A DNA stretch of 36,733 nucleotides from NCBI GenBank assembly GCA_964196045.1, contig CAXMRH010000154.1, forward strand, positions 1 through 36,733, read 5' to 3'. This document shows, piece by piece, positions 1,130 to 10,550 of the stretch. Each line of letters begins with the position of its first letter. Within the stretch, counting starts at the first letter, position 1. The notes under the pieces were generated by a model. That model was not told the origin of the DNA and did no database searches. It worked only from the letters and a program-made list of their open reading frames with translations. Origin of the DNA: an uncultured Chthoniobacterales bacterium. GTDB lineage: Bacteria; Actinomycetota; Acidimicrobiia; Acidimicrobiales; SHLQ01. The translations under genes and the position numbers were made by a program.

Positions 1130-3505
1130 ATGGCCATCGTGGAGCTCTCCGATTTCGGTGGAGCTGAGCTCGAATCCGACACGATGGACCTTCGCGAGCG
1201 GGCGAATACTGCGTCCTTCGATGGCGACAATTTCGACGAACTCGTCGAGGCGTTGCACGCCGATGGCCGCCTGGCCCACGTCGCGCACCAGCCGTCTCGC
1301 CCGGCTCGATTCGCGACCTCGATCGCACCGATTAGTCCTGGGGTAGAGGCTGCGCTCGGAGGTGAGCGACTCTGGACCCATCAGGCAGAAGCCATCGACC
1401 TCCTGCATGCCGGTCATTCGGTCGTCGTTGCTACAGGGACTGCCTCAGGAAAATCTCGCAGCTATCAGATCCCGATAGCCGAGGCAGCGGCGCGCCGCGG
1501 CAACACGGGCACTGCACTCTTGCTCTTTCCAACCAAGGCGCTCGCACAGGACCAGCTTCGTTCGCTACACCGTCACAAGTTCCCCGAGGTCGTCGCGGGG
1601 ACCTACGACGGAGACTCCACTCTCGAACAACGAACGTGGGTCCGGTCCACCGCGAATGTGGTGCTGACCAACCCAGAAATGGTGCACGCCTCGATTCTTC
1701 CCGGGCACGCGCGGTGGGCCACGTTCCTCGGCCGCCTCGACCATGTCGTCATCGACGAACTTCACGTCTTGCGAGGCGTGTTCGGAACACATGTCTCCCA
1801 TGTGCTTCGGCGCCTCCGGCGACTCTGCCATCACTATGGCTCCGATCCGCAGTTCATCTTCACGTCCGCAACGATCGGCGAACCCGGGACGTTGGCGAGT
1901 CAGCTGTGCGGCGTGCCGGTCACCGAGGTCACGAACGATGGTTCTCCTCGCGGCGAGCGCACCATCGTGATGCTCAACCCTCCGATCCTCGACGAAGCCA
2001 AGGGTCTTCGGACTTCAGCCAACGCAGAATCGGCAAATATCGCTGCCGAGTTGATCAAACGGGGACACCGAACGATCGTCTTTTGCCGAAGCCGGCGAGG
2101 GACCGAGCTCGTGACCGGCGACATTTCCCGTCGCCTTCCAATCGGCCACCAAGACAGCGTTCGTGCCTATCGGGCTGGCTACCTGGCTGCTGAACGCAGA
2201 ACGATCGAGCACGAGTTGTTCGAAGGTTCCTTGCGAGGCGTCGTGGCCACGTCCGCCCTCGAGTTAGGGATCGATGTCGGTGGCCTCGATGCGTGCGTGC
2301 TCAACGGTTTTCCTGGCACCATCGCGTCCATGTGGCAACAGATTGGGCGCGCAGGCCGCGGCCAGCAGCGTTCTGCGGCCGTACTAGTTGCAGGAGACGA
2401 CCAGCTCGACCAGTGGATCATGTCGCACCCGACCGACTTGCTCGAACGTGAACCCGAACGCGCCGTCATCAACCCAACTAACCCCTACATCCTTGGCCCT
2501 CATCTCGCATGCGCGGCATTCGAAAAGCCCATCTCTCACGACGACGATGTGTACTGGGGCCCAAGTCTCGATGATGGAGTCCGCGATCTGGTCGTCGATG
2601 ACCAGATGCTTCTCAAACCGTCTGGCAACGGCACACCTTTGGCGGTCTACGCAGGCCGCGGCCGGCCCTCTCGTGGCATCGGACTTCGCTCCGGCAGTTC
2701 TGACGAACTGCACATCGTTCGCAAAGATGGTTCGATCGTGGGCACGGTCGACTCGTCGAGGGCCTCCGCAGTGGTCCACCCGGGAGCGATCTACCTACAC
2801 CAGGGCAAGCCCTATCGAGTGATCGACCTCGATCTCGACGACCGCTGCGCCACGGTGATCGAGGCCGACGGCGACCAGTACACGCAGGCCCGCGCGAAGG
2901 TCGACGTCTCCGTCGTTCGCGCGGACCAGACGGCCCGCCTGGGAGACGGCAGCACGGGCGTCGGGGTGTATGTCGGAGATGTGGAAGTCGTCAGTCAGGT
3001 CACGGGATATCAGCGGCGCGAGGTGCGAAGCCGACGAATCCTCGCCAACGAAACGCTAGAACTGCCGCCATCAACTCTTCGGACCCGAGCTTTCTGGTAC
3101 GTCATCCCGATCGAACAGATCGAGGCCGCCGGGCTCGACGCACAACAGGTACCAGGCACTCTGCACGCAGCGGAGCATGCTGCGATCGGCATGCTCCCTC
3201 TGTTCACGATCTGTGATCGTTGGGATGTGGGCGGGGTATCGACGCCGTGGCACAGCGGCACGGTCGGACCCACGATTTTCATCTACGACGCGCACCCAGG
3301 TGGGTCTGGGATCGCCGAGCTGGGGTTCGGCGAACGAGATCGTCTTCTCCGGGCGACTCGCGACGCCATGGTGAGCTGCACCTGTACCGACGGATGCCCA
3401 TCATGTGTGCAGTCGCCAAAGTGCGGCAATGGCAACGAACCTCTCGACAAGGCAGGCGCAATCGTGTTGCTCACCCAGATTCTGGGCTTAGACGCACGCC
3501 TCTGA
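1130..3505 (+). CDS. DEAD/DEAH-box (DExH) helicase with C-terminal MrfA-type Zn-binding (DUF1998/MZB) domain
   Basis: 791 aa. Motif I ATGTASGKS, motif II DELH, motif III TSAT, motif VI QQIGRAGRG. C-terminal cluster CTCTDGCPSCVQSPKCGNGNEPLDK. A -10-like GATACT ends 6 nt before ATG 1130. An alternative start is ATG 1181. Confidence 0.9.
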   Translation: MAIVELSDFGGAELESDTMDLRERANTASFDGDNFDELVEALHADGRLAHVAHQPSRPARFATSIAPISPGVEAALGGERLWTHQAEAIDLLHAGHSVVVATGTASGKSRSYQIPIAEAAARRGNTGTALLLFPTKALAQDQLRSLHRHKFPEVVAGTYDGDSTLEQRTWVRSTANVVLTNPEMVHASILPGHARWATFLGRLDHVVIDELHVLRGVFGTHVSHVLRRLRRLCHHYGSDPQFIFTSATIGEPGTLASQLCGVPVTEVTNDGSPRGERTIVMLNPPILDEAKGLRTSANAESANIAAELIKRGHRTIVFCRSRRGTELVTGDISRRLPIGHQDSVRAYRAGYLAAERRTIEHELFEGSLRGVVATSALELGIDVGGLDACVLNGFPGTIASMWQQIGRAGRGQQRSAAVLVAGDDQLDQWIMSHPTDLLEREPERAVINPTNPYILGPHLACAAFEKPISHDDDVYWGPSLDDGVRDLVVDDQMLLKPSGNGTPLAVYAGRGRPSRGIGLRSGSSDELHIVRKDGSIVGTVDSSRASAVVHPGAIYLHQGKPYRVIDLDLDDRCATVIEADGDQYTQARAKVDVSVVRADQTARLGDGSTGVGVYVGDVEVVSQVTGYQRREVRSRRILANETLELPPSTLRTRAFWYVIPIEQIEAAGLDAQQVPGTLHAAEHAAIGMLPLFTICDRWDVGGVSTPWHSGTVGPTIFIYDAHPGGSGIAELGFGERDRLLRATRDAMVSCTCTDGCPSCVQSPKCGNGNEPLDKAGAIVLLTQILGLDARL

Positions 3506-4837
3506 GATCGCCCCGACGAACTCGATCAGCAGTTCCCAGCCCGCGTCGGCCTGTTCAGCCAGGCTGTCGATATTGCCCGGGAAGAACGCACGGCATCCCG
3601 GCGCCGGTTTCTCGCTCGCGAGTTCGCCACCCTTCGGTATGAGGCCGGCAACCGCAATGTCCGTGGACCATACCGGCCTAGCCCAGGTCTCAAGAGACGG
3701 CAGCTGTTCGCTGAGAGGAATGTAGACCACGGGCTTCGGTCGGCCAATCGCCGTTAGGACCACTTCTCGCTCAGTTGCGCCCGGCGCGACCCAGTCGAGT
3801 TGGGCGAGGCGATCGAGCTTCGGAGAGTTCTCGGTAATTCCGCCGGCCTCAACGAACATCGACTTCAGCCCGATGACCGCCGCATCAGTGCCGAAGACGT
3901 TCCAGTCGAATCCGTCGCCCTGCACATCACCCAGCAACAACACGACATCGTCTGAGGTGGTGATGTTCGAGTCAAAAACGTCGTCCTCGAACCAGGTCAG
4001 CGAGAAACCTGAATCGAGGAGTTCCTGTTGCAGCCGCGCTGTCGAGGGGTCTGTCACAGGGTCCGCGACCGCGGAGACCACTACTACCACCCGATCCGCT
4101 GCAACGCCGGCAAGCACGGTTACCGACCGACTGGGATCAGACGTGTTTCCTGCGCCGTCCACCGCCTTCACGGAGTAGGTGACAACCGTGCCGGAGTCGA
4201 TCGTGTCCGTGAAGTTCGCCGAGTCGCCATTGTCGATCTCGGACGTCTCGGGGCCAATCGTCCGAGTCACGACGTAGCGCTCGATGCCCGAGATGTCCGT
4301 GACCGGTTCCCAGTGCAGGGAGACCGCATCCTCCGATTCGACCACTGTGGGCCGAGTTGGTCGTTTCGGCGGGTTCGAGTCGACGCCGACCTGCACGGTG
4401 ACGGGGTCGCTTCCGCCGCTTTTCGCGCCAACCCCGATCGCCACGACTTGGTAGCTGTAAATGTCGCCGTCCGTCAGACCAGAGTCGATGAACGACGAGG
4501 CGTCGACAACGAAACGCTGCGTGGACCCAGCAGGCGAGACGCGGGAGACCTCGTACTCGTCCACACCGTCATCGCGGGACGGGTCCCACGCGAGCTCAAT
4601 GGTGCCGTTCGAGGTGTCGATGACAACCAAGCCGACAGGTGCATTGGGAGCGGGGTCGATCTCGGGCAGAGGTTCCGCGGTGACCGGTGGCGGGTCAGCG
4701 ACCGACGTCTCCGCGGACTCACTTGGAGAAGACCCCGAACAAGCCGCTGCCACGATCGAGACCGCCACGAAGCCGATGAATGGAACCGCGTACCGCCCGC
4801 GCAACACGTGGACTCGATCCTTGCCGGTTTCGACCAT
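3488..4837 (-). CDS. lipoprotein with two fibronectin type III domains and an uncharacterised C-terminal domain
   Basis: Internal ATG at 4837 (MVETGKDRV...) lies 10 nt after the HD-GYP stop. Signal peptide plus lipobox VSIVAAAC|SGS. Two FN3-like segments (LAWDPSRDDGVDEYEVSR; LHWEPVTDISGIERYVVTR). The Arg/Pro-rich extension in the ORF track is an out-of-frame read of the neighbouring gene. Confidence 0.75.
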   Translation of the reverse strand: MVETGKDRVHVLRGRYAVPFIGFVAVSIVAAACSGSSPSESAETSVADPPPVTAEPLPEIDPAPNAPVGLVVIDTSNGTIELAWDPSRDDGVDEYEVSRVSPAGSTQRFVVDASSFIDSGLTDGDIYSYQVVAIGVGAKSGGSDPVTVQVGVDSNPPKRPTRPTVVESEDAVSLHWEPVTDISGIERYVVTRTIGPETSEIDNGDSANFTDTIDSGTVVTYSVKAVDGAGNTSDPSRSVTVLAGVAADRVVVVVSAVADPVTDPSTARLQQELLDSGFSLTWFEDDVFDSNITTSDDVVLLLGDVQGDGFDWNVFGTDAAVIGLKSMFVEAGGITENSPKLDRLAQLDWVAPGATEREVVLTAIGRPKPVVYIPLSEQLPSLETWARPVWSTDIAVAGLIPKGGELASEKPAPGCRAFFPGNIDSLAEQADAGWELLIEFVGAISEACV

Positions 4838-4847
4838 ATTCACTCGC

Positions 4848-6560
4848 CTAGTTCGGAACGGTGACGGTGACGGTGGCCCGATCACAGCGGCCATTCGTGT
4901 CACAAATCTGATAGACGATGATGTCCACGACGCCCGTAACGTCTCGCCTGTAGTAGATGTAGCCGTTGAAAACGCCGTAATCGTCGGCATAGATAGGCGC
5001 AACGATGATCTCAAGAGTGCTTTCATCCATGGGATGGTCGCCTGGCGCGTCGTTTTCGAGCACGAAGATGTTGTTGTGGCCGCCGTTGATGATCGTTTTC
5101 GAGTCGTTGTTTGCGTCGGGATCAAGCGAGGCCGGTGCCGCGGTCGTGGTGGGCGCTGCAGTCGTGGTGGGCGCTGCAGTCGTGGTGGGCGCTGCAGTCG
5201 TGGTGGGCGCTGCAGTCGTGGTGGGCGCTGCAGTCGTGGCCGGAGAGCGTGCTGGCGTCGTGGTCGTGGTCGTGGTCGTGGTCGCGGTCGTGGTCGTGGC
5301 GAGCCCTGACGTCGTTGGGGCTGGCAGTGGCGCCGTGGTGGTGGTTGTAGCAACCGGGGCGAGCGGTGGCGCAACAGAGCCGATGGCCAGATCGTCGACG
5401 ACCACTTCTTCGATCACAGGTCGTGAGTCATCGAACGCGAGAGCTGTTGGAGCATCGACGCTGCCGACGCCGACAAGCGACGCAGCCGATACCGACAGAG
5501 CCGTCGCCGCGGTAGCCATTGTGGAGACGACCGAGGGGCTCGCCGTGGCTACGGAACTCGTCACGCGCAGCATCGTCGGAAGTTCGAGCAACCAACCAAG
5601 GAAGCCTGCGGAATGACGGCCATCATCGAGTCCAACCCGAAAGAAGGCCTTGACCACTGCGGGATCGAATTGTGTCCCGGCGCAGCGATAAAGCTCCTCT
5701 CGCGCCGCACGCGGTGACATCGCCTCCTTGTAACTTCGCTTGGACGTGATGACGTCGTAGGTATCCGCGACCGCCGCGATTCTCCCGCCAAGGCTGATTT
5801 CGGTCGCCTCGAGTTGACCCGGGTATCCGCCGCCGTCCCAACGTTCGTGATGGTGCAGTGAGACGAAACCCCACTCGCCAAGCCAGCCATGGAGAGGCTC
5901 CAGGATTTTCTGCCCCTCTAGGGGATGCTCTTTGAGAATCAGCCACTGCTCTTCCGTCAGCGCTTCCTTGCTGTTGAGAATGTGGGCTGGGACAGTCAGC
6001 TTGCCCACGTCATGGAGCAACACTCCCCAGCGAAGCCGGTTCAGCTCATCTTCGGTCAGGCCCATTTCCTGACCGATGAGCTCGGCGTACGTCCGGACTC
6101 GTTCCGTGTGTCCACGAGTTCGGGGCTCATGCGCACCGAGGGCTGCGACCAGCGCCATTGCTTGCTCAGCGGCCTCCTGGGTGTCCTCACTCAATATCAA
6201 TTGCTCAGGCGTCAGCTTCTTGATGTTTCCGGCTCTTAACGTGACACCGAATCGAGACGGAGCATGGTCGGGGAACACCATCGTCATGTTAAGAAGCGCC
6301 GACATGGGAGCGAGTCTGTTGGCAACACGTTTGGCGCTGTGCGCGGCGACCGACGCAACTACGATCGCTTGCATGATCCAGACCCCCGTACCGGTCCACC
6401 CCTCGGGTCGATAGAAGGCCCAGGCGACGATGCGAACCGCCAACCAGCCAATGACGATCGGCGCGACGAACAAGAGCAGGCGTACCAGCTTGGCGAGCAC
6501 GGGACGCGAGGCCCATGTCGCCACGCTCTCGCTTGCGCCAATAGTAGGTGCGGAAGTCAT
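4848..6560 (-). CDS. membrane HD-GYP domain phosphodiesterase with C-terminal Thr/Pro/Ala repeat linker and cadherin-like domain
   Basis: ATG at 6560 gives 570 aa. Two N-terminal hydrophobic helices. HD-GYP motifs LLHDVGK and HHHERWDGGGYP. A further hydrophobic segment (MATAATALSVSAASLVGVGSV), then T-runs and (AAPTTT)x6. The last ~90 aa carry a VLENDAPGD motif of the bacterial cadherin-like type. Confidence 0.9.
   Translation of the reverse strand: MTSAPTIGASESVATWASRPVLAKLVRLLLFVAPIVIGWLAVRIVAWAFYRPEGWTGTGVWIMQAIVVASVAAHSAKRVANRLAPMSALLNMTMVFPDHAPSRFGVTLRAGNIKKLTPEQLILSEDTQEAAEQAMALVAALGAHEPRTRGHTERVRTYAELIGQEMGLTEDELNRLRWGVLLHDVGKLTVPAHILNSKEALTEEQWLILKEHPLEGQKILEPLHGWLGEWGFVSLHHHERWDGGGYPGQLEATEISLGGRIAAVADTYDVITSKRSYKEAMSPRAAREELYRCAGTQFDPAVVKAFFRVGLDDGRHSAGFLGWLLELPTMLRVTSSVATASPSVVSTMATAATALSVSAASLVGVGSVDAPTALAFDDSRPVIEEVVVDDLAIGSVAPPLAPVATTTTTAPLPAPTTSGLATTTTATTTTTTTTTPARSPATTAAPTTTAAPTTTAAPTTTAAPTTTAAPTTTAAPASLDPDANNDSKTIINGGHNNIFVLENDAPGDHPMDESTLEIIVAPIYADDYGVFNGYIYYRRDVTGVVDIIVYQICDTNGRCDRATVTVTVPN
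5143..5240. repeat. perfect 18-bp tandem repeat (gtcgtggtgggcgctgca) x5 plus a partial copy
   Basis: Read directly: units at 5143, 5161, 5179, 5197 and 5215, all identical. In frame, encoding (AAPTTT)n in the HD-GYP protein. Confidence 0.95.
5257..5298. repeat. hexanucleotide repeat (gtcgtg)x7 with one variant unit
   Basis: Read directly. Encodes the poly-Thr run of the HD-GYP linker. Confidence 0.9.
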
Positions 6561-6612
6561 CACTTCTAATATCGACTCTCGACGCTGAGCTCTTGCTAGG
6601 CCGAACGACCCG

Positions 6613-6981
6613 TCAAGGGTGTTCGATGATGTCTTCCCTTCGCATGTGAACCTCCGCTGAAAGCACTCGTTCGCCCACTCCGATCCACGGCACGCCATCG
6701 ACGGTCCGGGTGACTCTGACCATGACGAATTCTGAATCGAACTCAGTTGAGACATTCAGCTCGCCGGCCACTCTCGACACTGCAGTCGATGCGACTGCTA
6801 TGGCATTCTCGGGCTCGATAGCGGCTGCACGTGCACCTTCTCGCGCGGCATTCTCGAGCCGAATCTGCCAGGTCATCAGTTGTCCGACCCAGAGCAGGCC
6901 GCCAAGACAGATGACGAGCAACGGGAGGACCAGAGCGAACTCAACGGTGGACTGGCCCCGATCCTCCCGGCTTCGCCTCAC
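6613..6981 (-). CDS. TadE-like pseudopilin / pilus assembly protein
   Basis: N-terminal DRGQSTVEFALVLPLLVICLGGLL matches the TadE/Flp-type class III signal. GTG at 6981 overlaps the flp stop (GTGA 6978-6981). The ORF track extends to 7050. Confidence 0.75.
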   Translation of the reverse strand: MRRSREDRGQSTVEFALVLPLLVICLGGLLWVGQLMTWQIRLENAAREGARAAAIEPENAIAVASTAVSRVAGELNVSTEFDSEFVMVRVTRTVDGVPWIGVGERVLSAEVHMRREDIIEHP

Positions 6982-7217
6982 ACCTTTCCGATGATCGAGT
7001 CGACGACCGCGTCGAACAGCTCGCCAATCTTTCCTGTTCCTGATGCCCACGTCACGACGACGAGTGCAATGGTCGCAGCGCCGAGAAGCAGAAGCGCGTA
7101 CTCCGCAGTCGATTGCCCTCGATCGCTGTGGCGATCAACCTGGTGCAGCTTCGAAACGACAGATCGGAAGATCTGTTGCACAGCGCTGCTGACGAGCAAG
7201 GTGGCTTTGGTGTTCAT
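6978..7217 (-). CDS. flp: Flp-family type IVb pilin
   Basis: 79 aa from ATG 7217, preceded by AAGAGGAAA. Processing motif G|QSTAEYALLLLGAATIALVVV (G/xxxxEY followed by a hydrophobic stretch). Confidence 0.8.
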   Translation of the reverse strand: MNTKATLLVSSAVQQIFRSVVSKLHQVDRHSDRGQSTAEYALLLLGAATIALVVVTWASGTGKIGELFDAVVDSIIGKV

Positions 7218-7271
7218 ATGAAATTTCCTCTTCGTTGGAATCGGGCGTAGCGCCGAGATCACCGACCTCAT

Positions 7272-7835
7272 TCAACCGGGCAGACCGGAAAGAGCACCGA
7301 GCAGCAAGGGCACGATGGCCAACAGAATGAAGGCAGGGAGAATGCAGAAAACAAGTGGAAAGAGCAGAGAAACCGTCAGTCGCTGGGCGGCCGCGTCGAG
7401 AGACAACGCCCGCGCCGTTCGAAAGTCACGAACCAAGAGCTCGAGTTGCAGGCTGAGTGCAGCCCCATCGAGCTCCGCCCGTCGAAGCAGGTCGAGGACA
7501 CGCATCATCGAGACAGACTGATCTCGTCGACCAGGGGTAAGAATCGCATCCGACAACGCAGCCCCAAGGGCAAGCCGCTTGGCGACGGTGGCGAAATCGT
7601 CCACGACGGCTCCCAAGTCCCCTCCGATCCTCAACCCTCCAATAGCATCGATTGCGCCACGCGGGGTGCGCCCGGCCGCAACGGCGATCTGCAGCAGGAC
7701 AACTGCGTTGGGCAACGCCTTAATTCGGACCTCCTCGCTCGCTCGTCGAGCCCGTCGACCCATCGACACGCGCCAAAGCGTCTTTACGACGATGAGCACG
7801 GTTAGCGCCATCCCGAGCACAGCCACGACGTTCAT
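7272..7835 (-). CDS. tadC: TadC-like type II secretion system F-family membrane protein
   Basis: ATG 7835 is preceded by GAGGAGG and overlaps the tadB stop (ATGA 7832-7835). N- and C-terminal TM helices flank a soluble T2SSF-like region. The position after tadB fits. Confidence 0.75.
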   Translation of the reverse strand: MNVVAVLGMALTVLIVVKTLWRVSMGRRARRASEEVRIKALPNAVVLLQIAVAAGRTPRGAIDAIGGLRIGGDLGAVVDDFATVAKRLALGAALSDAILTPGRRDQSVSMMRVLDLLRRAELDGAALSLQLELLVRDFRTARALSLDAAAQRLTVSLLFPLVFCILPAFILLAIVPLLLGALSGLPG

Positions 7836-8629
7836 CGAAGCCTCCTCATCAGAACGGACATCCACCACAGGCCCAGAGCATCCAATAGCAAGCCGCCTAC
7901 GACGAGAAGCATGCCGACCGCACCGTCAAGGATCGATGCTCCCCGAACGACAGACGCCACGATCGCGAACACCACAGGAAGAGACACGAGGACACCGGTG
8001 GACATGGTCGCCTGCACGAGTAACAGTCGGCGTCGCGCTGAATGCTGAAGTTCGTCACGTAGCCCCTCACCAACTCCATCGAGCGCTTTCGCCAGCGGGC
8101 CACCATGCGACACGCCCAATGTCAGCGCCGCTGCGAGCAGCCGTTCGGAACTCGTTGTCGCTCTCATCAGCCACGCGTCAAGCGCTGACTCGACTGGGCG
8201 TCCCATTCGAAGTTGTCGAATCACCCCATTCAAGCCCCGCGTCAAAGGAACGGTGTTTGACGAAAGCGCACGAAGCGCCTGCTCGAGCGAGTCTCCCGTC
8301 TGAAGGGATCTCGATACGCGTAGGGCAACCTCCGGAAGACCTGCCTCAGCGGACCGTTCGACTCGTCGGCTTACGTACGGCCCGGTCGCCGTCAGTGTGG
8401 CGATGAAAACACCACCGGCAACCAGCGCGCCAACCAGGCCTCCGATACGTGCCCCAGCGAAGAGCATGGCGACTGCGACGGCGCCAAGGAGCAGAGATGG
8501 AGGCCACACCACAGCGATGCCCAGATCTTCCGCCGTCGATCGGAGGCTCGCGTCGAGCGTGCAATACCGGCGCTGACCTGCGCACTGGGACGTCGCGAGA
8601 GGTTCAACAACTCGAGCTGGGACCTTCAC
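7832..8629 (-). CDS. tadB: TadB-like type II secretion system F-family membrane protein
   Basis: 265 aa. GTG 8629 overlaps the tadA stop (GTGA 8626-8629). TM helices flank a T2SSF-type cytoplasmic domain. Confidence 0.75.
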   Translation of the reverse strand: MKVPARVVEPLATSQCAGQRRYCTLDASLRSTAEDLGIAVVWPPSLLLGAVAVAMLFAGARIGGLVGALVAGGVFIATLTATGPYVSRRVERSAEAGLPEVALRVSRSLQTGDSLEQALRALSSNTVPLTRGLNGVIRQLRMGRPVESALDAWLMRATTSSERLLAAALTLGVSHGGPLAKALDGVGEGLRDELQHSARRRLLLVQATMSTGVLVSLPVVFAIVASVVRGASILDGAVGMLLVVGGLLLDALGLWWMSVLMRRLR

Positions 8630-9828
8630 CGGTCACCACCCAACCTTCCCGAGCCGGCGCTCTCTCCAGGCGGGTGGCCAGGACCGTCCACGGCCGCTGC
8701 CTCCCTCGCGGCCCCGACCACGTGATCGTCGTTGTCGTCGATCTCGAATATCGGCTCAAGGGACCACTCCGCGGTCGGCCGCTCCGGGACTCGGGCGATC
8801 TCGACGACGCGCCGAGCACCAGCATCACCACGACTCATCATCACCACGAGATCGATGCAGTCGGCAAGCTGCTCGCGGATTGCCTGGAGTGGTAGATCTG
8901 CATCGCCCAACAACATCATCGTCTCGATCCTCCGCAGTACTCCCGAAGCAGTGTTCGCGTGCACGGTCGAGAGCGATCCACGATGACCCGTGTTCAAGGC
9001 CTGCACGAGGTCCAACGCCTCCGCCCCACGCATCTCGCCACAGATGATCCGATCTGGGCGCATACGTAGGGCGTTTCGCACGAGCTCTCGAAGGCCGACG
9101 GATCGGATCCCTTCGGTAGCGTTTCTCGTTTCGAGACGAACGATGTGGTTCCCCGGCAAACGAAGCTCGGCCGCATCTTCGATCGTGACGACGCGGGAGT
9201 CCGAGTCGATGAAGGCGACAAGAGCGTTGAGAAGTGTGGTCTTGCCCGACGATGTGCCACCGCCGATGATGATCGTCAGTTGGTCCGCCACGGCCTTCAT
9301 GAGTAGGTGTTTGGCTGCTGGCGCCGCCAGCTCGGACAGATCGATCGACCGGACGGCGAACCTGCGGATCGTCAGGCATGGCCCATCGACAGCCAACGGG
9401 GGGATGATCGCATGCAGTCGAGACCCGTCCTTCAACCGCACATCGACGCTCGGTTCCGTTCGATCGATGCGCCGACCCGCGTTCGAGGCCAATCGCCGAA
9501 CCAGCTGCAGCGTTGTCTCCGGTTCGAGGCTCTGACCCGTACGTTCGAGCCGTCCGCGGCGCTCGACCCAGACGCTTCCGTCGCCGTTCACCATAATTTC
9601 TGTGACAGTTTCGTCGAGCCCGTACTGGTGCAACGGACCGAGTCCGTCGATCCTTGCCTTGACTTCGTCGACCACATCTTCGATCGACGCGGCGGTGGCA
9701 AGCGGTTCGGCCTCGGCGATCAGACTCCGAATGCGACATTCCATATCCACATCGAGAGCAGCCCCCTCGTTCCACAACTCGCGATGCACCCGTTGAACGG
9801 TGCCTGACAGCGCTCGGGGCGAACTCAT
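8626..9828 (-). CDS. tadA: TadA/CpaF-family pilus assembly ATPase
   Basis: ATG 9828 (MSSPRALSG...) overlaps the upstream stop (ATGA). Walker A GGGTSSGKTTLLNAL. MRPDRIICGEMRG and HRGSLSTVHAN boxes typical of VirB11/CpaF ATPases. Confidence 0.9.
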   Translation of the reverse strand: MSSPRALSGTVQRVHRELWNEGAALDVDMECRIRSLIAEAEPLATAASIEDVVDEVKARIDGLGPLHQYGLDETVTEIMVNGDGSVWVERRGRLERTGQSLEPETTLQLVRRLASNAGRRIDRTEPSVDVRLKDGSRLHAIIPPLAVDGPCLTIRRFAVRSIDLSELAAPAAKHLLMKAVADQLTIIIGGGTSSGKTTLLNALVAFIDSDSRVVTIEDAAELRLPGNHIVRLETRNATEGIRSVGLRELVRNALRMRPDRIICGEMRGAEALDLVQALNTGHRGSLSTVHANTASGVLRRIETMMLLGDADLPLQAIREQLADCIDLVVMMSRGDAGARRVVEIARVPERPTAEWSLEPIFEIDDNDDHVVGAAREAAAVDGPGHPPGESAGSGRLGGDR

Positions 9829-10550
9829 AGGAGAACCCCCTCGACCTGCTGGAACGTCGAGGAGGAAGGAGTCGGCATCAGGTCGCGCACGAGGCGTCGC
9901 AAAGGGCGGGGCAGTCGCCCCGTCAACAACCCTGCATCGATCGCCCGGGCAACCCGTGGATCGACCGCCAGCCGGGTCGTCACCGCCCTTCCAACCACCG
10001 CTTCGATGTCGAGAGTCGACAGGGCGCGTCCACCCTCTACGATCTCGACCACGTCGTCTGCAACCACTGGCAGGTGCCGAGCACGACGCAACGCCAGATA
10101 ACACGCTCGAAGGACAAGGGTGGTCCGATCGCTCGACGCCGCAAGTAGCGACACCGGAGAGAACGGGTCGGGATCGAGAACACCGAGGTCACCAAGGACG
10201 ACTCGTCCGTCCTGGAAAGCTCCCACCAACGCATGACACCGTTGTGGCGACACCGGCTGTGTCTTTGATCGCGAACCGGCAGGGAGAATTGTGAGCCCTG
10301 GACGCAACTCGACCTCGAGGTTCGAGAGCGCCTCGACGCCAACATCATCCGTCGCATGTAACCAATCCCACACGCCGCTGGTGGCGCCGGCGTCGAGACC
10401 AAAGATCTCGAGCTGATCGCCGCAGAAGTCGATGAGTGTCACGGCGCGGCCTTTCGACAGGCCAGACGCCATTGCAGCGGCGACCACGGACACGCCGACT
10501 CCGCCCTTCGGAGAAACGAACGTCCAGAACACGATGAACCCCCGACGCAC
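9825..10550 (-). CDS. Ssd/TadZ(CpaE)-like MinD/ParA-fold protein with degenerate P-loop
   Basis: 241 aa with a GTG start. N-terminal FVSPKGGVGVS is a deviant Walker A lacking the second Lys. It is the first gene of the tad operon and is coupled to tadA. Confidence 0.6.
   Translation of the reverse strand: MRRGFIVFWTFVSPKGGVGVSVVAAAMASGLSKGRAVTLIDFCGDQLEIFGLDAGATSGVWDWLHATDDVGVEALSNLEVELRPGLTILPAGSRSKTQPVSPQRCHALVGAFQDGRVVLGDLGVLDPDPFSPVSLLAASSDRTTLVLRACYLALRRARHLPVVADDVVEIVEGGRALSTLDIEAVVGRAVTTRLAVDPRVARAIDAGLLTGRLPRPLRRLVRDLMPTPSSSTFQQVEGVLL

Follow-up and report, generated by a model that had tools for sequence, protein, structure and literature searches.

Why should a gene for an HD-GYP phosphodiesterase, located directly behind a Tad pilus locus, end in a domain of the adhesin type? 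This question is raised by a stretch of 36,733 nucleotides (contig CAXMRH010000154.1 of the assembly GCA_964196045.1, deposited as an uncultured Chthoniobacterales bacterium and placed by GTDB in the lineage SHLQ01 of the Acidimicrobiales), hereafter called the window, which carries on its minus strand, at positions 4848-6560, an open reading frame (ORF) of 570 amino acids plus stop codon, as defined by the ORF list and its translation. The respective genome is represented by a 3.2-Mb assembly of 326 contigs, and the sequence occurs in marine-sediment and marine metagenome runs, DNA being the source of all runs in which it was detected. According to the reading favoured here, to which we assign a probability of roughly 0.6, the gene product would be a three-pass membrane protein with a cytoplasmic HD-GYP domain and an outer Thr/Pro stalk that carries a Big_9 ectodomain, and it would act as a one-component receptor phosphodiesterase for a cyclic dinucleotide, most likely cyclic di-GMP (c-di-GMP).

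The initial annotation of the gene had described two transmembrane (TM) helices, an HD-GYP domain, a third hydrophobic segment, a Thr/Pro/Ala linker and a domain of about 90 amino acids with a VLENDAPGD motif, and this order is reproduced by both the residue map and the Pfam matches (Table 1). The longest minus-strand ORF ending at 4848 would begin at 6755 and overlap the tadE gene; the ATG at 6560 yields the N-terminus MTSAPTIGASE, which matches the N-termini MISGPTTGASE, MTKGPTRGAGE and MDSGPTTGANE of homologues and thereby confirms a start of the HD-GYP gene at 6560. With the tadE stop codon at 6613 and the ATG of the downstream FN3 gene at 4837, the previously noted distances of 52 nt behind the tadE-like gene and 10 nt before the FN3 gene, all on the same strand, are exact.

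The catalytic part of the 570-aa protein was recognized by the Pfam profiles HD_5 (E-value 6.7e-33; 114.3 bits versus a cut-off of 27.2) and HD (E-value 7e-15; 55.7 bits versus a cut-off of 22), and the phosphodiesterase PmGH (4mcw) matched residues 117-308 with an E-value of 3.9e-30. A comparison with NCBIfam yielded no specific family, only a sub-threshold match to a NosR-type HD-GYP model (110 bits versus a cut-off of 400). The HD dyad corresponds to H183-D184, the HHERWDGGGYP motif at residues 237-247 is intact and K187 is present. In alignments of 24 and 53 family members the residues H151, H183, D184, K187, H212, H237, H238, G245, Y246, P247 and D266 are invariant. This set includes seven of the eight metal ligands of PmGH, which align with H151, H183, D184, H212, H237, H238 and D266, provided that the ligands are numbered as we take them to be in the PmGH structure paper. 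The genome moreover contains at least 13 GGDEF loci, which indicates that c-di-GMP is made and is hence the likely substrate. Judged by these sequence features, the HD-GYP domain is predicted to be catalytically competent and most likely hydrolyses c-di-GMP, although the substrate may instead be another cyclic dinucleotide.

At the other end of the protein, the isolated last 91 amino acids matched the Big_9 family (PF17963) above the Pfam cut-off (25.9 bits versus 23.6; E-value 1.9e-5), the match extending over positions 4-89 of the 89-position profile; the domain went unreported when the whole protein or a C-terminal piece of 252 amino acids was scanned against Pfam. An AlphaFold2 (AF2) model of residues 476-570, based on 30 aligned relatives, displayed a seven-strand beta-sandwich with a confidence (predicted local distance difference test, pLDDT) of 95 and a predicted template modelling (pTM) score of 0.84. 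In a Foldseek comparison with the PDB, this model resembled Ig-like modules from extracellular proteins, namely split domains of the Vibrio adhesin FrhA, Rib, PKD and SraP domains, the EC domains of cadherins and protocadherins, and dystroglycan, with TM-scores of 0.5-0.67 overall and of 0.55-0.67 for the adhesin Ig-like folds, and with a best E-value of only 3e-3. The sequence profile of the domain matched a chain of an RTX protein in the PDB with an E-value of 5e-5 and gave 66,994 matches among 1.84 billion representative proteins. The top matches were proteins of 1,654-7,477 amino acids, most of them longer than 2,000, with 11-61 repeats, which characterizes the C-terminal domain as an adhesin-type repeat. 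These data bear out the Ig/cadherin-like fold that had been suggested for this region, and the label "cadherin-like" appears to hold only at the clan level, with calcium binding being putative. Within the subfamily of the window protein the residues D486, N503, D504, Y550, C553 and C559 are invariant, and the resulting CxxxxxC pair (C553/C559) would fit an oxidising, extracytoplasmic location. A homologue search with the C-terminal 95 amino acids alone retrieved only five close orthologues.

The catalytic part is shared by a large protein family with variable C-termini. A homologue search covering 5.8 billion proteins resulted in more than 120 homologues with E-values below 1e-100, most of them 509-813 amino acids in length (full range 368-813), which, where a source was named, belong to the Acidimicrobiia, the Acidimicrobiales or the Actinomycetota. 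According to precomputed Pfam matches of the 120 listed homologues, the C-terminal module is Big_9 in 44 proteins, pentapeptide repeats in 20, a C-type lectin domain in three and CBM_2 in one; Cadherin_4 or Cadherin_5 also occurs in a few, and the remainder is without a C-terminal Pfam call. When, in addition, a single genome was scanned for each species, 15 loci came to light in which the match also spans the N-terminal TM region; they are distributed among the Acidimicrobiales, Thermoleophilia, Gaiellaceae, Frankiales and Acidothermaceae. The C-terminal regions found in this way include seven Big_9 domains, accompanied by LTD, PKD and NHL domains, in a protein of 1,808 amino acids (locus L009), four Big_9 domains in a family member of 815 amino acids, Big_13 arrays in locus L010 and in a family protein of 1,292 amino acids, and CBM_2 in locus L018, the CBM_2 version being present in the isolate Acidothermaceae bacterium B102. 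Some family ORFs end in tails of pure low complexity. The constant parts comprise a GPTxGA N-terminus, the two TM helices, a juxtamembrane motif, the HD-GYP domain, a GxLxWLxELP stretch, the third hydrophobic segment, a PxxLAF-type motif and the Thr/Pro linker. Accordingly, the protein belongs to a large actinomycetotal family in which an interchangeable ectodomain is attached to a constant core of TM1-TM2 hairpin, HD-GYP domain and third segment (TM3).

Such an exchange is also visible within the genome of the window, which encodes one paralogue (contig C158, positions 1861-4068) that is 43% identical in the constant part, carries HHERVDGGGYP in the GYP region and possesses pentapeptide repeats in a C-terminal domain whose end reads C...SCW. 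Tandem pairs of family genes were observed in two further genomes (L008:7633-12445 and L011:8027-11968); in one of these genomes both proteins are of the multi-Big_9 type, and in the other both have a C-terminal domain of uncharacterised type that terminates in RIITAC.

The segment connecting both parts is strongly biased in its composition, since 37 Thr, 14 Pro and 22 Ala residues were counted among the 85 residues of the linker (residues 395-479). Tandem Repeats Finder (TRF) detected a perfect 18-bp repeat in 5.4 copies at positions 5143-5239 and a 6-bp repeat, (GTCGTG) in 7.2 copies, at positions 5257-5299. The initial annotation had counted six AAPTTT units; the repeat is present, but it consists of five full units plus a partial sixth (AAP). 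In each of four metagenome runs the short-read unitigs break off at the tandem repeats, within positions 5172-5310, and the copy number of AAPTTT consequently rests on the assembly. Word depth at the 6-bp repeat is very high owing to sequences of unrelated organisms. Since no single contig from these runs spans the repeat, two genes might have been fused across it during assembly or annotation of this metagenome-assembled genome. The probability of such an artefact is practically negligible, because the same single-ORF architecture is found in more than 50 independent assemblies, including a 3.48-Mb chromosome, contigs of more than 1 Mb and an isolate genome, and because the lengths of the repeat units are multiples of three, so that the reading frame is kept at any copy number. 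O-glycosylation of the Thr/Pro-rich stalk is probable, and its length would probably suffice to span the cell wall.

The topology of the protein was considered with regard to hydrophobicity, calculated on the Kyte-Doolittle scale over 19 residues (KD19; classic TM threshold 1.6), and to the distribution of charges. K24, R27 and R43 are located within TM1 and R19 just before it, the first 19 residues being net neutral. A loop of six amino acids, predicted to be outside, joins TM1 to TM2, and TM2 is followed by the sequence KRVANR, the net charge of this flank being +3. The basic residues at TM1 together with the charge of +3 behind TM2 would point to a cytoplasmic HD-GYP domain, on the same side of the membrane as its substrate. 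Between TM2 and the HD-GYP domain lies the sequence PMSALLNMTMVFPDHAPSRF, in which P85, F96, P97, D98, P101, S102 and R103 are invariant in 53 sequences and for which AF2 gave a pLDDT of 44-46. This juxtamembrane motif, whose family form is LLNMTLVFPDxAPSRFG, is specific to the family and a candidate relay or regulatory element.

Behind the catalytic domain, the amphipathic stretch SAGFLGWLLELPTMLR, which has the family form GxLxWLxELP, precedes the third hydrophobic segment. A hydrophobic segment is present at this position in all 64 family members compared, with a median KD19 of 1.79 and values of at least 1.6 in 55 of them, and its mean net charge is +0.17 in the preceding and -2.1 in the following flank; the corresponding values of the window protein are 0 before and -6 in the stretch of 26 residues behind it. 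CBM2 and C-type lectin domains, arrays of Big_9, PKD and NHL domains and Thr/Pro linkers are marks of exported proteins. The strongest argument is therefore comparative: because the modules behind the third segment are of exported types, the C-terminus very probably resides outside the cell.

The flank on the distal side of the third segment contains a further conserved element. A motif of the form P-x(2-4)-[LIVM]-A-F was found in most of the 64 members, 5-10 residues past the third segment and within an acidic stretch. In the window protein, where this stretch comprises 26 amino acids, the motif reads PTALAF, and P371 of this sequence is invariant in the A1 alignment (24 sequences) and nearly so in the A2 alignment (53 sequences). 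The motif resembles a cleavage or docking site. If the third segment were an internal signal sequence, cleavage near PxxLAF would release the stalk and the Big_9 domain as a secreted or wall-bound protein and leave a phosphodiesterase with two or three TM segments behind. Such a processed precursor would be consistent with the signal-peptide-like composition of the third segment, which is rich in Ala, Ser, Thr and Val and preceded by Arg, as well as with the position of [LIVM]-A-F 5-10 residues further on and with the small residues at positions -1 and -3 in the window protein (TALA/F) and in many relatives. It is nevertheless improbable, since position -3 is occupied by Gln, Glu or Asp in many members (PEQLAF, PPQIAF, PEDLAF, PEELAF), which type I signal peptidase does not accept, and since 64 of 64 homologues lack a stop or restart between both parts, which argues for selection of their covalent linkage. 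On account of the residues at position -3, the PxxLAF motif was rejected as a general type I signal-peptidase site.

The receptor reading can be put into the following terms. The N-terminus would be located in the cytoplasm, TM1 and TM2 would pair as a hairpin and the HD-GYP domain would face the cytoplasm. The third segment, rich in Ala, Val, Ser and Thr, would cross the membrane again and lead to the acidic PxxLAF stretch, the stalk of about 85 amino acids and the Big_9 domain on the outside. Upon meeting or clustering on a surface, a polymer, a ligand or a partner, the ectodomain would alter either the oligomeric state of the protein or the packing of TM3 against the TM1-TM2 hairpin and the juxtamembrane motif, and each of these changes might shift the hydrolysis of c-di-GMP in the cytoplasm.

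The direction of signalling could, in principle, be the opposite one. The ectodomain would then be an adhesin, with the HD-GYP part either anchoring it or switching its presentation in a LapD-like manner, or the enzyme would be constitutive and the ectodomain would merely localise it, for example at wall or pilus sites. Several ectodomains of the family are adhesin or carbohydrate-binding modules, some of them very large, and thus appear more effector-like than sensors of small ligands. Moreover, no HAMP or S-helix relay was seen between TM3 and the catalytic domain, where AF2 predicted only an amphipathic stretch of low confidence. On the other hand, the strict conservation of the catalytic residues throughout the family indicates that hydrolysis, and not binding alone, is under selection, and receptors usually vary in just this way, a single outer module being exchanged while the signalling core stays constant. 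Taken together, display and anchoring are considered an unlikely explanation, and the receptor phosphodiesterase is retained as the preferred one.

The genetic neighbourhood contributes a candidate partner. The gene order GSDH, HAD, tadZ-like, tadA, tadB, tadC, flp, tadE, HD-GYP, FN3 and a convergent helicase gene recurs in loci L003 and L089, whose HD-GYP proteins are 69% and 76% identical, respectively, to the window protein in the constant part. In locus L086 (54% identity) the HD-GYP, FN3 and helicase genes are kept, and insertion sequence (IS) fragments without a tad gene are located upstream. With locus L091 (63% identity) included, the pair of HD-GYP and FN3 genes is thus present in five genomes (window, L003, L086, L089 and L091), in four of which it stands beside a Tad locus, all of these belonging to one clade. 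The steadier partner of the HD-GYP gene is therefore the FN3 gene and not the tad genes. The FN3 protein might be viewed as a candidate partner of the ectodomain, encoded in a two-gene unit with the HD-GYP gene that stands beside the Tad locus in this clade. Its C-terminal region of about 200 amino acids is without a Pfam match. No terminator-like site was detected in the 52-nt gap at positions 6561-6612, where a scan for promoters and terminators gave counts at the level of shuffled sequences. A GTCGAT element followed by (G)AGAAG is located directly before the start codon (positions 6561-6585 of the window) and is common to the window, L089 and L091; it may represent a regulatory element or a Shine-Dalgarno-like site at an unusually short distance.

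Table 1. Features of the HD-GYP gene and of the adjacent Tad and FN3 genes, in coordinates of the window; residue numbers refer to the protein of 570 amino acids.
Feature	Position	Strand	Basis
Whole HD-GYP gene, putative three-pass membrane protein with C-terminal Ig-like ectodomain	4848..6560	-	ORF, homologues
TM1, residues 20-48	6417..6503	-	KD19 maximum 2.44; AF2 helix 20-48, pLDDT 80-95
TM2, residues 55-76	6333..6398	-	KD19 1.40; AF2 helix 55-95, pLDDT 86-95
Juxtamembrane motif PMSALLNMTMVFPDHAPSRF, residues 85-104	6249..6308	-	family conservation, 53 sequences
HD-GYP catalytic domain, residues 117-308	5637..6212	-	Pfam HD_5; alignment with PmGH 4mcw; pLDDT 87-97
Third hydrophobic segment (putative TM3), residues 337-368	5457..5552	-	32 uncharged residues, KD19 maximum 1.49
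PTALAF motif, residues 371-376	5433..5450	-	conserved P-x(2-4)-[LIVM]-A-F
Thr/Pro/Ala linker or stalk, residues 395-479	5124..5378	-	composition, tandem repeats; pLDDT <50
Big_9 Ig-like domain, residues 480-570, containing VLENDAPGD	4851..5123	-	Pfam, AF2, Foldseek
Tad locus (tadZ-like, tadA, tadB, tadC, flp/DUF4244, tadE-like)	6613..10550	-	Pfam; order same in L003, L089
tadA (T2SSE)	8626-10104	-	Pfam
Two T2SSF genes	7832-8629 and 7272-7868	-	Pfam
flp, DUF4244 (Flp-type pilin)	6978-7271	-	Pfam
TadE	6613-7050	-	Pfam
FN3 protein, 449 aa, exported or lipoprotein-like	3488..4837	-	Pfam fn3 E 1.8e-9; N-terminal hydrophobic segment ending AAAC

Several observations weigh against the receptor reading or against its extension to the pilus. 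Regarding the neighbourhood, in locus L091 (L091:1024-5842) flp and tadE are succeeded first by a JmjC-like gene and an opposite-strand alpha/beta-hydrolase gene and only then by the HD-GYP/FN3 pair, and the pair must have its own promoter there. Furthermore, in 19 of 19 more distant members (L087, L088, L090 and 16 further loci) neither tad nor FN3 homologues were detected nearby, within 8-10 kb on each side for long contigs and within the contigs of 2-9 kb that represent four of these loci. Conservation next to tad loci was consequently confined to the nearest clade and was absent from most of the family. The suggested coupling between the pilus and c-di-GMP turnover therefore retains the direct adjacency of the tad genes in the window, L003 and L089, but finds little support elsewhere, the arrangement being interrupted in L091 and missing in L086 and in the 19 distant members. 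Regarding catalysis, Glu185 of PmGH, the first metal ligand, aligns with R147, and E145 is located two positions earlier; an arginine at this position means that the site may be bimetallic or that substrate or activity may differ. In the stretch 6212-6100 (residues 117-151), Leu is the family consensus at the position of R147, and His144, which is invariant and precedes a Glu or Asp residue, is located just upstream. Regarding the relay, we know of no characterised precedent among c-di-GMP enzymes for a sensor placed C-terminally behind the output domain, and the relay mechanism is for this reason speculative.

The third segment of the window protein itself is the remaining difficulty. It is marginal, with a KD19 maximum of 1.49 that is close to that of TM2 (1.40), well below that of TM1 (2.44) and below the threshold, with a free energy of +3.4 kcal/mol on a simple summed Hessa scale, and with a pLDDT below 50 in the AlphaFold model for residues 325-470, in which no helix was formed over residues 344-366. 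These values would suit a protein in which the third segment fails to cross the membrane, the complete C-terminal region together with Big_9 being cytoplasmic. Such an arrangement appears still less probable than proteolytic processing, since a hydrophobic segment is kept in 64 of 64 relatives, mostly above the TM threshold and with an acidic distal flank, and since the linkers, lectin, carbohydrate-binding and Ig-like modules and the invariant Cys pair behind it are features of exported proteins. Accordingly, the inside/outside topology put forward in the initial annotation is strongly supported at the family level, whereas the segment of the window protein is weak on its own, and the topology assigned to this protein rests on the family argument. 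Overall, the data support the architectural reading and lend weak support to a link with the pilus.

What the receptor reading could mean in a wider sense can be stated only tentatively. The sensor domains that supply c-di-GMP enzymes with their input are believed to be N-terminal. It is conceivable, though rather doubtful at present, that monoderm Actinomycetota possess in this family a class of receptor-type cyclic-dinucleotide phosphodiesterases that has gone unrecognised, in which a glycosylated stalk spanning the wall, with an exchangeable adhesin, lectin or carbohydrate-binding ectodomain, would report contact with a surface or a polymer, and possibly mechanical load on the stalk, one C-terminal TM helix conveying the signal straight to the cytoplasmic HD-GYP domain. 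Within the same tentative picture, the phosphodiesterase, the FN3 protein and the Tad pilus of this clade might be joined in a single circuit that senses attachment and, once contact is made, reduces c-di-GMP. If this were true, second-messenger control in Gram-positive bacteria would be wired in a new way, with an exchangeable surface module following the catalytic domain on a stalk that spans the wall. The family is widespread among the Acidimicrobiia and further Actinomycetota, mostly uncultured bacteria that abound in soils, waters and sediments, and the variety of ectodomains, ranging from cellulose-binding and lectin domains to adhesin repeats, suggests that decisions on biofilm formation or attachment may be tuned to specific surfaces or polymers. 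The occurrence of the CBM2 version in the isolate Acidothermaceae bacterium B102 makes the receptor idea testable.

The architecture had been described as unusual for a cyclic-dinucleotide phosphodiesterase, and this assessment is in line with the HD-GYP census and the literature searches, which mention no such arrangement. The census (10.1101/2021.11.05.467447) lists HD-GYP proteins with N-terminal sensors only, namely dCache, PBPb, CHASE2, MASE9-12, REC, GAF and others; it contains no mention of Actinobacteria or of pentapeptide, lectin or Ig-like modules, and it states that HD-GYP proteins equipped with an extracytoplasmic sensor have all remained uncharacterised. Full-text literature searches combining HD-GYP with Tad, Acidimicrobiia or Ig-like and surface terms returned nothing relevant, and the family is described in no paper found. 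HdgA of Streptomyces, which consists of six TM helices of the MASE9 type and an HD-GYP domain (PMC6205966), was considered as a relative and rejected on account of this different architecture.

A comparison with known systems places the window protein between signalling enzymes and surface proteins. PmGH (4mcw), PA4781 (4r8z) and V-cGAP3 (5z7c) contain the same catalytic domain, with the HD and HHExxDGxGYP motifs, the Lys residue and seven of eight metal ligands kept, but they are soluble proteins with N-terminal regulatory domains (REC, GAF), whereas the window protein is predicted to be embedded in the membrane by the TM hairpin ahead of the catalytic domain and the third segment behind it, and carries a C-terminal putative ectodomain. 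The HD-GYP proteins with dCache, PBPb, CHASE2 or MASE9 domains are likewise one-component membrane proteins that are thought to couple signals from the outside or from the membrane to the hydrolysis of c-di-GMP; their sensor is N-terminal, either periplasmic between two TM helices or formed by a block of six to eight TM helices, whereas the corresponding module of the window protein is C-terminal, beyond one additional putative TM segment and the Thr/Pro stalk. The same overall plan, consisting of an N-terminal cytoplasmic module, one TM helix, a linker and outer binding modules such as PASTA or carbohydrate-binding modules, is realised in PknB-type kinases and RsgI anti-sigma factors, and the outer modules of these proteins vary between paralogues. 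They differ in having a kinase or anti-sigma module and no N-terminal TM hairpin, so that the likeness is an analogy of design and not of descent. Finally, the giant RTX and surface adhesins (FrhA, MpIBP, SraP and Rib, with Big_9, VCBS and cadherin-like repeats) share the (V/I)LxND motif with the C-terminal domain of the window protein, but they are secreted and contain tens of tandem copies, whereas the window protein bears a single copy, marked by the CxxxxxC pair that is invariant in its subfamily, at the end of a signalling enzyme.

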